The position numbers and the translations under genes were made by a program. Below, in pieces: positions 25,022 to 26,285 of a stretch of 64,000 nucleotides of DNA. Each line of letters starts with the position of its first letter. The stretch's first letter is position 1. The stretch lies in IMG/VR virus record IMGVR_UViG_2721755662_000004; one strand, 5' to 3'. The notes under the pieces were generated by a model. The model made no database searches, was not told where the DNA came from, and saw only the letters and a list, made by a program, of their open reading frames with translations. The stretch is from a virus (Duplodnaviria > Heunggongvirae > Uroviricota > Caudoviricetes).

Positions 25022-25101
25022 CAGAGCCAGCTCAATCGCTGGCCTTTTTTATGAGGAGAGATATAACCTGAATCAATGCCAGTGCATTATCAACAAATGG
25101 A

Positions 25102-25683
25102 TCACTGGGTAAGCTCGTTTGGTTTTAAATGTCCGTCGAGAATCAGATTGTGATTTTCCCGATGCAGAACCAGTGTGCCCATATAATCAGGTTTAAATCT
25201 CCATCCATTCATTTTTTTTGCAATTCTGGACAGACAGTGATTATGTGTGAAAATCACAGTAACATGATCTGATTTTGATATTTTAAGGATATTATTTACT
25301 GCGTTATCATCACATGTCGATATGTCCGGAATAGTTGCTGTCTTACCTCCCGAAAAAAAAGTGGCTGTCTGCATTGTTCGGAGTGTGTCTGTAGAATAGA
25401 GACTGTAGTATGGAAACATTCTTCTGAATTTATCTCCATATTGTTGAGCTTTGTTAGCTCCGTTTACTGTGATTCCCTCATGTGCTGAAAGACATATTCT
25501 TTGGGAGCGATCGCATCTTTCCCCATGCCGGATGAGAAAAATAATGGGATGTTTCTGGTTAATCTCAGTGACATCGTTCACATCAAGTCTGACTGGAGTT
25601 CTTACAATGTATATGATGGATACAGAAACGATTATGACAAGTAAAAATATAAGAAGAGATTTTGTTAGCGTTTGATTTAACAT
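25102..25683 (-). CDS. Ais/PmrG-like histidine phosphatase (candidate LPS core heptose(II)-phosphate phosphatase), secreted
   Basis: 193 aa from ATG at 25683 with AAGGGA SD; N-terminal signal/TM; catalytic FLIRHGERCDRS motif and FTHNHC; AT-rich island; opposite strand to late genes. Confidence 0.7.
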   Translation of the reverse strand: MLNQTLTKSLLIFLLVIIVSVSIIYIVRTPVRLDVNDVTEINQKHPIIFLIRHGERCDRSQRICLSAHEGITVNGANKAQQYGDKFRRMFPYYSLYSTDTLRTMQTATFFSGGKTATIPDISTCDDNAVNNILKISKSDHVTVIFTHNHCLSRIAKKMNGWRFKPDYMGTLVLHRENHNLILDGHLKPNELTQ

Positions 25684-26285
25684 ATAAATTCCCTTGTCTG
25701 TGTTGAAAATGGGCATTATTATGCGTAAATCTTATGTAATCCTTAAGGATTGTCTGACGTGGTGATATGACGCGAAATACAGTGGGTACACAGAATGCTG
25801 TGAACAACGACGAAATGGGCATTGGTAGCGGTACTGGTGCTTTTTTTATTGGTTGGTTGCTCAAGTCTTGATAAAGCGCGTTAGCTTTTTGGTATTGCCT
25901 CTTAGGTCTGTAAAATTGCCGACGGTGTCCGGCAGTGCATGCAGGGCTGATCGTCTATGAGAACAGAATATATTGCTAAAAATGAAGTGTGCGTCAATGC
26001 TTATAAAGCATGCAATTCTGTATTTCTAACTATTCAATAAAATAAATTCTTTCTGTCGCAGTGAATATACAAATGTTGATCAGCGCTCGATGTGGCGACG
26101 GGTTTCTATATCAGGAGACTTTGGCATTTATCCGCGAGGCAGCCTATCTGGTGCTGTAGTGGAATGAAGCGGATATAACCTAAATAAGGTTAAACATTAA
26201 TCAGACATGGCTCTGCTGTGTGAAATCTGAAAATTTACAGCAGTCATTGTGCATCAGTTTTTAACAGAGAACGTCAGAAGGTGAC

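Follow-up and report, generated by a model that had tools for sequence, protein, structure and literature searches.

A prophage-borne Ais/PmrG paralog with a predicted PmrA-box promoter and a probable membrane anchor

Between the Rz and terminase genes of the prophage catalogued as IMG/VR record IMGVR_UViG_2721755662_000004 (Caudoviricetes; the 64,000-nucleotide stretch analysed is referred to here as the window) is a minus-strand gene for a histidine phosphatase of the Ais/PmrG family, referred to here as the ais-like gene. We favour, with moderate confidence, the reading that it is a PmrA-activated moron whose product is a membrane-anchored, periplasm-facing phosphatase of the Ais/PmrG type acting on the inner core of lipopolysaccharide (LPS). 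Judged from sequence, the homology to Ais is correct, but it is already recorded in RefSeq, where WP_000934362.1 bears the name ‘lipopolysaccharide core heptose(II)-phosphate phosphatase’, and is thus no discovery. New here are the mobile clade of which the gene is a member, its fixed antisense slot, the conserved predicted PmrA-box promoter and the probable membrane anchor.

The program-made list of open reading frames (ORFs) contains a 204-aa minus-strand ORF at 25102-25716, whose translation carries the motifs RHGERCDRS and FTHNHC. It lies antisense to the lysis and packaging genes, with Rz ending at 25021 and terS starting at 26286, both on the plus strand. GC content is 0.36-0.43 over 24950-26300 compared with 0.50-0.57 on either side; in the gene itself it is 37.5%, falling to 32.5% at third codon positions (GC3), compared with a GC3 of 47-63% in the Rz, lysozyme, terS, terL and portal genes. 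An AT-rich, antisense gene with these two motifs between Rz and the terminase genes had been described in an earlier note on this DNA, and is confirmed by the ORF list, the motifs and the GC content. Translation probably starts at the ATG at 25683 (193 aa) rather than at 25716, because the upstream ATG overlaps the predicted −10 element and a Shine-Dalgarno sequence precedes the downstream one; the RefSeq start of WP_000934362.1 (193 aa) is likewise the ATG at 25683.

The same note had likened the product to Ais/PmrG, and had named a profile search beforehand as the refuting test. That search placed the protein in no unrelated phosphatase branch: by far the top family was the Ais/PmrG subfamily NF011945 of NCBIfam (PRK15416; 201.9 bits, cut-off 142, E = 7.4e-60), and all other NCBIfam histidine-phosphatase models scored below 20 bits. 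On the same model, Ais of E. coli K-12 scores 391.9, PmrG of Salmonella 366.1 and TraG of IncI plasmids 294 bits. Support for the likeness also comes from BLASTP against K-12 Ais (43% identity over 158 aa, E = 7e-44). Membership of branch 1 of the histidine phosphatases is indicated by Pfam PF00300 (His_Phos_1), with 28.7 bits against a cut-off of 21.7 over residues 59-125 of the 204-aa ORF, and by the RHG motif, present as R52-H53-G54. The PmrG equivalog model NF052369 gave the window protein 113.2 bits, below its cut-off of 170; neither Ais of K-12 (145.8) nor PmrG of Salmonella (146.1) reaches it. NF052369 must therefore describe some other group, and failing it is no ground to exclude membership of Ais/PmrG; since the genuine members fail as well, the model was dropped as a membership test.

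In an alignment of 47 relatives, R52, H53, R56, C57, D58, R59, S60, C64, H147 and C150 are invariant and R102 is nearly so; of the cysteines, three are invariant and one near-invariant. R56, R59, R102 and H147 are candidates for the residues that would complete the phosphate pocket. The AlphaFold2 model computed from this alignment (predicted local distance difference test score 91.5, predicted template modelling (TM) score 0.84) consists of an N-terminal helix spanning residues 2-26 followed by an α/β domain. The top 50 Foldseek matches in the PDB are all histidine phosphatases, with E values down to 1.6e-7, and include SixA (1ujb, target-normalised TM-score 0.69), the C-terminal histidine-phosphatase domain of MutT1, phosphoserine phosphatases and PGAM5. 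No solved structure for the Ais family was found by sequence search, no PHROGs family matched the window protein (best E = 0.046), and BFVD returned just generic histidine phosphatases, mostly from giant viruses. The family is small, with 115 representatives at E ≤ 1e-3 and 9 at 1e-30 among 1.84 billion clusters.

Following a positively charged n-region, the h-region of the window protein comprises 19 uninterrupted hydrophobic residues, whose Kyte-Doolittle hydropathy averages 3.06. In the mobile paralogs, a short basic n-region precedes 16-19 unbroken hydrophobic residues, directly followed by R-T-P, and in none of them, the window protein included, was a small-x-small (AXA-type) site found at the C-terminal end of the hydrophobic stretch. 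Because the 19-residue stretch has no such end site, the N terminus is probably an uncleaved signal anchor that would keep the catalytic domain next to the inner membrane, on its periplasmic side; the conserved cysteines would fit an oxidising compartment. Of the previous description of the protein as secreted and signal-peptide-bearing, the N-terminal hydrophobic stretch stands, but it is more probably a membrane anchor than a cleaved signal peptide. Given that SixA is among the closest solved folds, the protein might be thought to be a cytoplasmic SixA-like phosphohistidine phosphatase interfering with host phosphorelay signalling. The long N-terminal hydrophobic helix, the cysteines typical of an oxidising compartment, a sequence that is specifically Ais/PmrG-like and the absence of the SixA model from the NCBIfam matches make such a role extremely unlikely.

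Upstream region and candidate PmrA box

Aligning the 250 nt upstream of the gene from seven diverged lineages gives an unalignable background with a single conserved block. Expressed as mean pairwise identity, anchored on the conserved block and calculated among lineages that share ancestry, conservation is 0.32 over the 30 nt preceding the block, 0.83 in the first hexamer of a box resembling the binding site of PmrA/BasR, 0.34 in its 5-nt spacer, 0.76 in the second hexamer, 0.58 over the following 10 nt, 0.75 in a −10-like hexamer and 0.39 over the 12 nt downstream of it. The hexamers of the lineages read (C/G/A)TTAA(G/T) and (C/T)(T/A)TAA(G/T). The box is present in 7/7 lineages, with 10-12 of its 12 positions matched and its end 47-54 nt upstream of the ATG, and all seven share the layout of box, 10 nt and −10-like hexamer; in six of them the hexamer fits NATAAT or TATATT.

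Among dinucleotide shuffles of the 200 nt upstream of the gene in the window, a match of at least 11/12 positions at 40-60 nt from the ATG arose in 0.12% (P = 0.0012). As controls, the same script located in K-12 a 12/12 box for eptA, at 46 nt from its ATG, and, for arnB, an 11/12 box followed after 10 nt by TAAAAT. A consensus scan for σ70 promoters found neither a −35-like hexamer nor a canonical σ70 promoter in the region upstream of the ais-like gene. A PmrA box consists of two hexamers, five nucleotides apart, that stand in for the −35 element, and PmrA contacts its TAA/AA bases; the box of pbgP in Klebsiella pneumoniae is CTTAAT/CCTAAG (PMC10570014, PMC10927774). The deviation at position 2 of CCTAAG is of the same kind as that in CATAAG, the second hexamer in the window, and supports the candidate box there. 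The ais-like promoter is thus predicted to have a PmrA box in place of the −35 element, in which case expression in the lysogen would be conditional on active PmrA. The previous proposal that the gene has its own promoter and is expressed in the lysogen phase is upheld in silico as far as the conserved predicted box in the −35 place goes; constitutive expression is not predicted.

According to the favoured reading, the late operon would be silent in a lysogen, and stray rightward transcripts would be stopped after Rz by the hairpin at 25026-25043. Activation of PmrB/BasS by Fe3+, Al3+ or mild acid would lead phospho-PmrA/BasR to bind the box at 25731-25747, where, occupying the −35 place, it would recruit RNA polymerase to the −10 element at about 25715-25720. 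Transcription, predicted to start near 25708, would give the mRNA a leader of ~25 nt ahead of the ATG at 25683, from which translation would begin, and the N-terminal hydrophobic helix would insert into the inner membrane, leaving the catalytic domain in the periplasm, where the conserved cysteines (C57, C64, C124 and C150) could form disulfides. H53 of the RHG motif would then attack a phosphomonoester, by homology the heptose II phosphate of the LPS inner core, once LPS has been flipped across the inner membrane. Such dephosphorylation would reduce the negative charge of the surface, adding to the envelope remodelling that the host itself places under PmrA control. We infer the LPS substrate, like any phenotype in resistance or receptor use, from homology only: PmrG of Salmonella is stated in PMC8129183, which cites Nishino 2006, to dephosphorylate heptose II.

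Several observations weigh against this reading, some bearing on the box and others on the substrate. The −10 hexamer of the p48B2a lineage is poor (AACAGT), and no PmrA box was found upstream of the distant mobile paralogs (IncI traG and the P0036 clade). Across the window as a whole, box-like matches are no more frequent than chance predicts (5, compared with an expected 3.0 +/- 1.7); the whole-window count was dropped as a statistic and position and conservation were used instead, so that the case for the box is one of position and of conservation among related, non-independent sequences. The NF011945 score is about half of those of Ais and PmrG and below that of IncI TraG, and the protein falls in a separate clade; the substrate could therefore differ. 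The activity of K-12 Ais is itself annotated as ‘putative’. Finally, deletion of pmrG in PmrA-constitutive E. coli left polymyxin resistance unchanged (PMC8129183), and any resistance benefit may therefore be small.

In a Salmonella copy of the gene (P0007; L040:4933-5001), an insertion sequence (IS) ends 67 nt upstream, replacing the PmrA box and leaving a TATAAT in place; this arrangement suggests a promoter swap.

Mobile relatives and alternative functions

Paralogs were detected by sensitive blastn in 83 of 5,426 E. coli genomes, and 22 viral contigs in IMG/VR carry a relative. Five other, unrelated lambdoid prophages (E10, PSJ-22, C311, A10 and W13-16; 67-80% nucleotide identity), which differ in their holins, endolysins (lysozyme, M15 peptidase, GH108) and terminases, have the gene in the same antisense orientation, first after the lysis cassette and before the terminase. 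A neighbour-joining tree sets the mobile clade apart from the chromosomal clade of Ais, PmrG and Citrobacter sequences. Within the mobile clade, pairwise ratios of nonsynonymous to synonymous substitution rates (dN/dS) are 0.17-0.32, at dS of 0.4-1.3, and the ais-like gene is therefore under purifying selection.

The gene might instead be a hitch-hiking remnant that looks intact and is unexpressed or functionless, silenced in AT-rich DNA. The allele is rare (43 of 5,426 genomes), the lipoprotein gene next to it, part of the same module, is no longer intact in the window, and some copies elsewhere are truncated or frameshifted (P0066 and L042). Such a remnant is nevertheless contradicted by the low dN/dS at near-saturated dS, by catalytic residues that are all intact and by promoter elements kept while their surroundings were randomised, and we regard it as very unlikely.

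Copies on IncF virulence plasmids and islands, usually flanked by IS elements, adjoin genes for F4 fimbriae (L007:6001-6582) and for AIDA-I (L036:4968-5582). Beside a CS1/Tcf-type fimbrial operon is a Salmonella copy (L040:5001-5582), and a further plasmid copy (L042:6908-7393) is next to an usher of the PefC/AfrB family, with two helix-turn-helix (HTH) regulators directly upstream. On the IncI-gamma/K1 plasmid pHU590, the gene called ‘traG’ (L035:3878-4462) encodes an Ais-family histidine phosphatase and is located between traF and traH, next to the shufflon recombinase gene rci. Conjugative plasmids with a copy that has ~45% identity to the window protein number ~1,400 and come from E. coli, Salmonella, Shigella and Klebsiella; for one of them the IncI type was established, as was the location of the gene within the tra region. 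P0066, a frameshifted version of the prophage paralog of W13-16 type, goes by the public name ‘transcriptional activator AfrS’; an AfrR-AfrS pair in the W13-16 prophage was considered and rejected, the AraC-type gene there being unrelated to the plasmid regulators.

From this name, from the fimbrial, adhesin, usher and HTH regulator genes beside the plasmid copies, and from the separation of the mobile clade from chromosomal Ais/PmrG, it might be argued that the clade has another job, as an AfrS-like accessory factor for the expression or assembly of fimbriae or adhesins. Such a role could involve another periplasmic phospho-substrate or indirect envelope signalling. Direct activity as a transcriptional activator cannot be reconciled with a protein that has all of a phosphatase active site and a signal for the membrane or for export, and that lacks a DNA-binding domain; moreover, no fimbrial genes were found at the prophage loci, either in the window or in the five other prophages, and the AraC-type gene of W13-16 is unrelated to the plasmid regulators. 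We consider an AfrS-like function quite unlikely.

Of the 5,426 E. coli genomes, 5,413 have a chromosomal ais, and lysogens therefore have two members of the family. A second copy kept purely for resistance seems redundant in such hosts, and the same enzyme, with the same chemistry, might instead benefit the lysogen by editing receptors. Inner-core dephosphorylation would alter a surface trait on which LPS-core-binding phages or conjugative pili rely, providing a conditional form of superinfection or mating exclusion in place of resistance to metals or peptides. That the family is borne mainly by mobile elements (prophages, IncF virulence plasmids and the ~1,400 conjugative plasmids) is in keeping with this, as is the lack of a polymyxin phenotype on deletion of pmrG in E. 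coli (PMC8129183). The PmrA box, by contrast, would link expression to metal and acid signals, not to a phage threat. Counting further against receptor editing, we know of no need for core phosphate among 933W-like phages. Taken together, receptor editing is a tentative alternative, on the doubtful side.

A broader and speculative proposal, which we rate as unlikely, extends the favoured reading to the whole clade on lambdoid prophages, IncF virulence plasmids and IncI conjugative plasmids of enterobacteria. Its members would be membrane-anchored phosphatases that edit inner-core phosphorylation as a surface-identity switch, with the prophage lineage wired to PmrAB. A surface feature relevant to phages, pili or adhesins would then be altered only where a niche is rich in iron or acidic, the gut for example, giving conditional receptor masking or adhesin tuning rather than simple resistance.

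The island and its host prophage

Homology of the window to the Stx2a phage P13374 and to phage phi296, as detected by blastn, ends at position 25014 and restarts at 26132. The intervening island, of about 1.1 kb, has a GC content of 38.8% compared with 50.0% for the whole window (Table 1). The sequence that follows it, 26132-26285, is the conserved terS leader, common to phages that have no ais-like gene, and lies outside the insert. The island had been drawn in the earlier note as 25025-26285; the AT-rich insert is real, and the last ~150 bp of that span belong to the terS leader. Its designation as a moron is borne out by foreign composition, homology that stops sharply at 25014 and 26132, its own hairpin terminator and the same slot in prophages with other lysis and terminase genes. 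At the sequence level the gene is absent from close relatives, deviates in composition and has a terminator and a predicted promoter, which supports the view that the island is a lysogenic-conversion moron carrying a diverged mobile Ais/PmrG paralog.

Table 1 Features of the island and of the ais-like gene (window coordinates)
Feature	Position	Strand	Remarks
AT-rich inserted island (moron)	25015..26131		blastn borders against P13374 and phi296; between Rz and the conserved terS leader
GC-rich hairpin	25026..25043	+	GCCAGC-TCAATC-GCTGGC, then CTTTTTTATG; from terminator scan
Ais/PmrG-family histidine phosphatase gene	25102..25683	-	193 aa, stop codon counted in; ORF extends to 25716
FTHNHC motif	25234..25251	-	residues 145-150; H147 and C150 invariant
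RHGERCDRS catalytic motif	25504..25530	-	residues 52-60; H53 predicted phospho-acceptor
N-terminal hydrophobic helix	25606..25680	-	codons 2-26; AlphaFold helix at residues 2-26
Shine-Dalgarno sequence AAGGGA	25690..25695	-	6 nt 5' of ATG 25683; read from sequence
Predicted -10 hexamer AATAAT	25715..25720	-	10 nt past the box; alternative CATAAT at 25718-25723
PmrA/BasR-box-like direct repeat CTTAAG-GATTA-CATAAG	25731..25747	-	47 nt 5' of ATG; 11/12 match to YTTAAK-N5-YTTAAK
Decayed small lipoprotein gene	25767..25960	+	phrog_7528, E = 1.5e-34; ~60 aa, LLVGC lipobox

Folding of the plus-strand RNA of the hairpin gives −18.6 kcal/mol (z = −3.0), and its minus-strand tail, CUCUGUUAAU, is a weaker U-tail. 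The hairpin would thus be a good intrinsic terminator for plus-strand transcripts after Rz and a weaker or partial one for the ais-like transcript. By analogy with the established biology of lambdoid late operons, it may act mainly as an insulator, halting unmodified rightward transcripts after Rz in the lysogen and being read through by Q-modified polymerase during lytic growth. Another terminator-like site (25817-25842, plus strand) falls inside the decayed lipoprotein coding region and was not counted as a signal.

Four prophage lineages have, in divergent orientation to the ais-like gene, a lipoprotein gene (phrog_7528) whose product has two C-terminal cysteines, with intact copies at L005:5817-5999 and at L006, about 5782-6038. 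The window copy, ~76% identical in nucleotides to those of PSJ-22 and C311, which are both intact, has been disrupted, both by the insertion of 1 nt and by a change of CAG to TAG. Apart from this gene, the small ORFs of the upstream region, including a 93-aa ORF at 25583-25864 (minus strand), were judged mechanical, and Rfam gave no match in 24900-26400. The junction of Rz and terS is a variable cargo slot in 933W-like phages, occupied in this prophage by the antisense ais-like module; in P13374 (L033:1623-2513), and likewise in its relatives, the slot holds a plus-strand gene for a Rha-like regulator.

Over the 1.5 kb surrounding the gene, the window is 100% identical to a 933W-like (Sepvirinae-type) prophage without Shiga toxin (Stx), which is found in O104:H4 outbreak strains of E. 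coli and in other strains, among them ML35 and several FORC isolates; the whole 1.5-kb stretch is in 43 of the 5,426 complete E. coli genomes. It is also in the Stx1 phage GER2, at 99.5% identity and with an intact copy of the gene. Aligned with the prophage of O104:H4 strain 2011C-3493 (L001), the window shows over 4716-46559 blocks of 91-99% identity separated by breaks, for example at ~6550-8957 and 17088-18857. To equate the window with that prophage throughout would be wrong: the two are mosaic relatives, though the island is 100% identical.

Downstream of Q in the window is a plus-strand gene (20894-22804) for a 636-aa carbohydrate esterase of the SASA family (phrog_143), and in GER2 a 1.9-kb gene in a similar place, annotated as ‘mobile element protein’, has stx1AB just upstream of it. 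Because stx1AB of GER2 adjoin a gene placed like the SASA esterase gene of the window, this prophage looks like an stx-less relative of the Stx phages.

Comparison with known systems

A search of the mainly open-access literature found no paper on a prophage-borne Ais/PmrG or on its PmrA box, and nothing usable on AfrS, which is weak evidence of absence. If the favoured reading is correct, the gene would be a clear example of how a host regulon can capture a moron, its enzyme editing the inner core of LPS, not the O-antigen, on the command of a host two-component system. Because the gene is found in a prophage of the O104:H4/enteroaggregative lineage and in an Stx1 phage, it could shift tolerance of metals and cationic peptides, phage susceptibility or adhesion of pathogenic E. 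coli in the gut; enzymes of the same family are common on conjugative and virulence plasmids.

The closest counterparts are Ais of E. coli (b2252) and PmrG of Salmonella, with which the window protein shares the NF011945 family, the motifs RH(G/A)ERCDRS and FTHNHC, the cysteines, a similar length, a predicted N-terminal export signal and a predicted PmrA-box promoter. It differs from K-12 Ais in its limited identity (43%), its separate clade and its lower profile score (201.9 compared with 391.9, and 366.1 for PmrG). K-12 Ais has a classical signal peptide (THA|AW), whereas the window protein has a probable anchor that lacks a cleavage site, and its linker is shorter by 8 residues. Chromosomal ais adjoins arnB, divergent from the arn/pbgP operon, whereas the window gene is prophage-borne, between Rz and terS. 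The promoters differ as well: that of the window gene is compact, with the candidate box 47 nt from the ATG, whereas the sole box-like site of K-12 ais is the arnB box, 192 nt away and in the opposite orientation.

In position, the gene resembles morons of the bor type in phage lambda, reportedly described by Barondess and Beckwith in 1990. These occupy the same slot of the lambdoid map, after Rz and before the packaging genes, and are likewise antisense, with their own promoter and terminator and an envelope product expected to be made in the lysogen; the likeness is positional, with no homology. Bor is a lipoprotein without enzymatic activity, and we know of no PmrA control of it.

Like the window gene, traG of IncI plasmids places an Ais-family enzyme (~45% identical) on a mobile element, but it does so in a transfer operon, without a PmrA box and from a different clade, and it is very common (~1,400 plasmids), whereas the prophage allele is rare. 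AfrS, encoded in the AF/R1 pilus locus, is said by Cantey et al. in 1999 to regulate pilus expression. A regulator role would be ill-fitting for a membrane-anchored phosphatase acting directly, and the pilus locus is absent from this prophage.

Phage conversion of LPS is also the business of the gtrABC genes, by glucosylation, and of oac, by O-acetylation; these act on the O-antigen, belong to unrelated enzyme families and are constitutive or phase-variable. The ais-like gene would resemble them as prophage cargo that chemically edits the LPS of the lysogen, and would differ from them in acting on the inner core and in its apparent wiring to a host two-component system.

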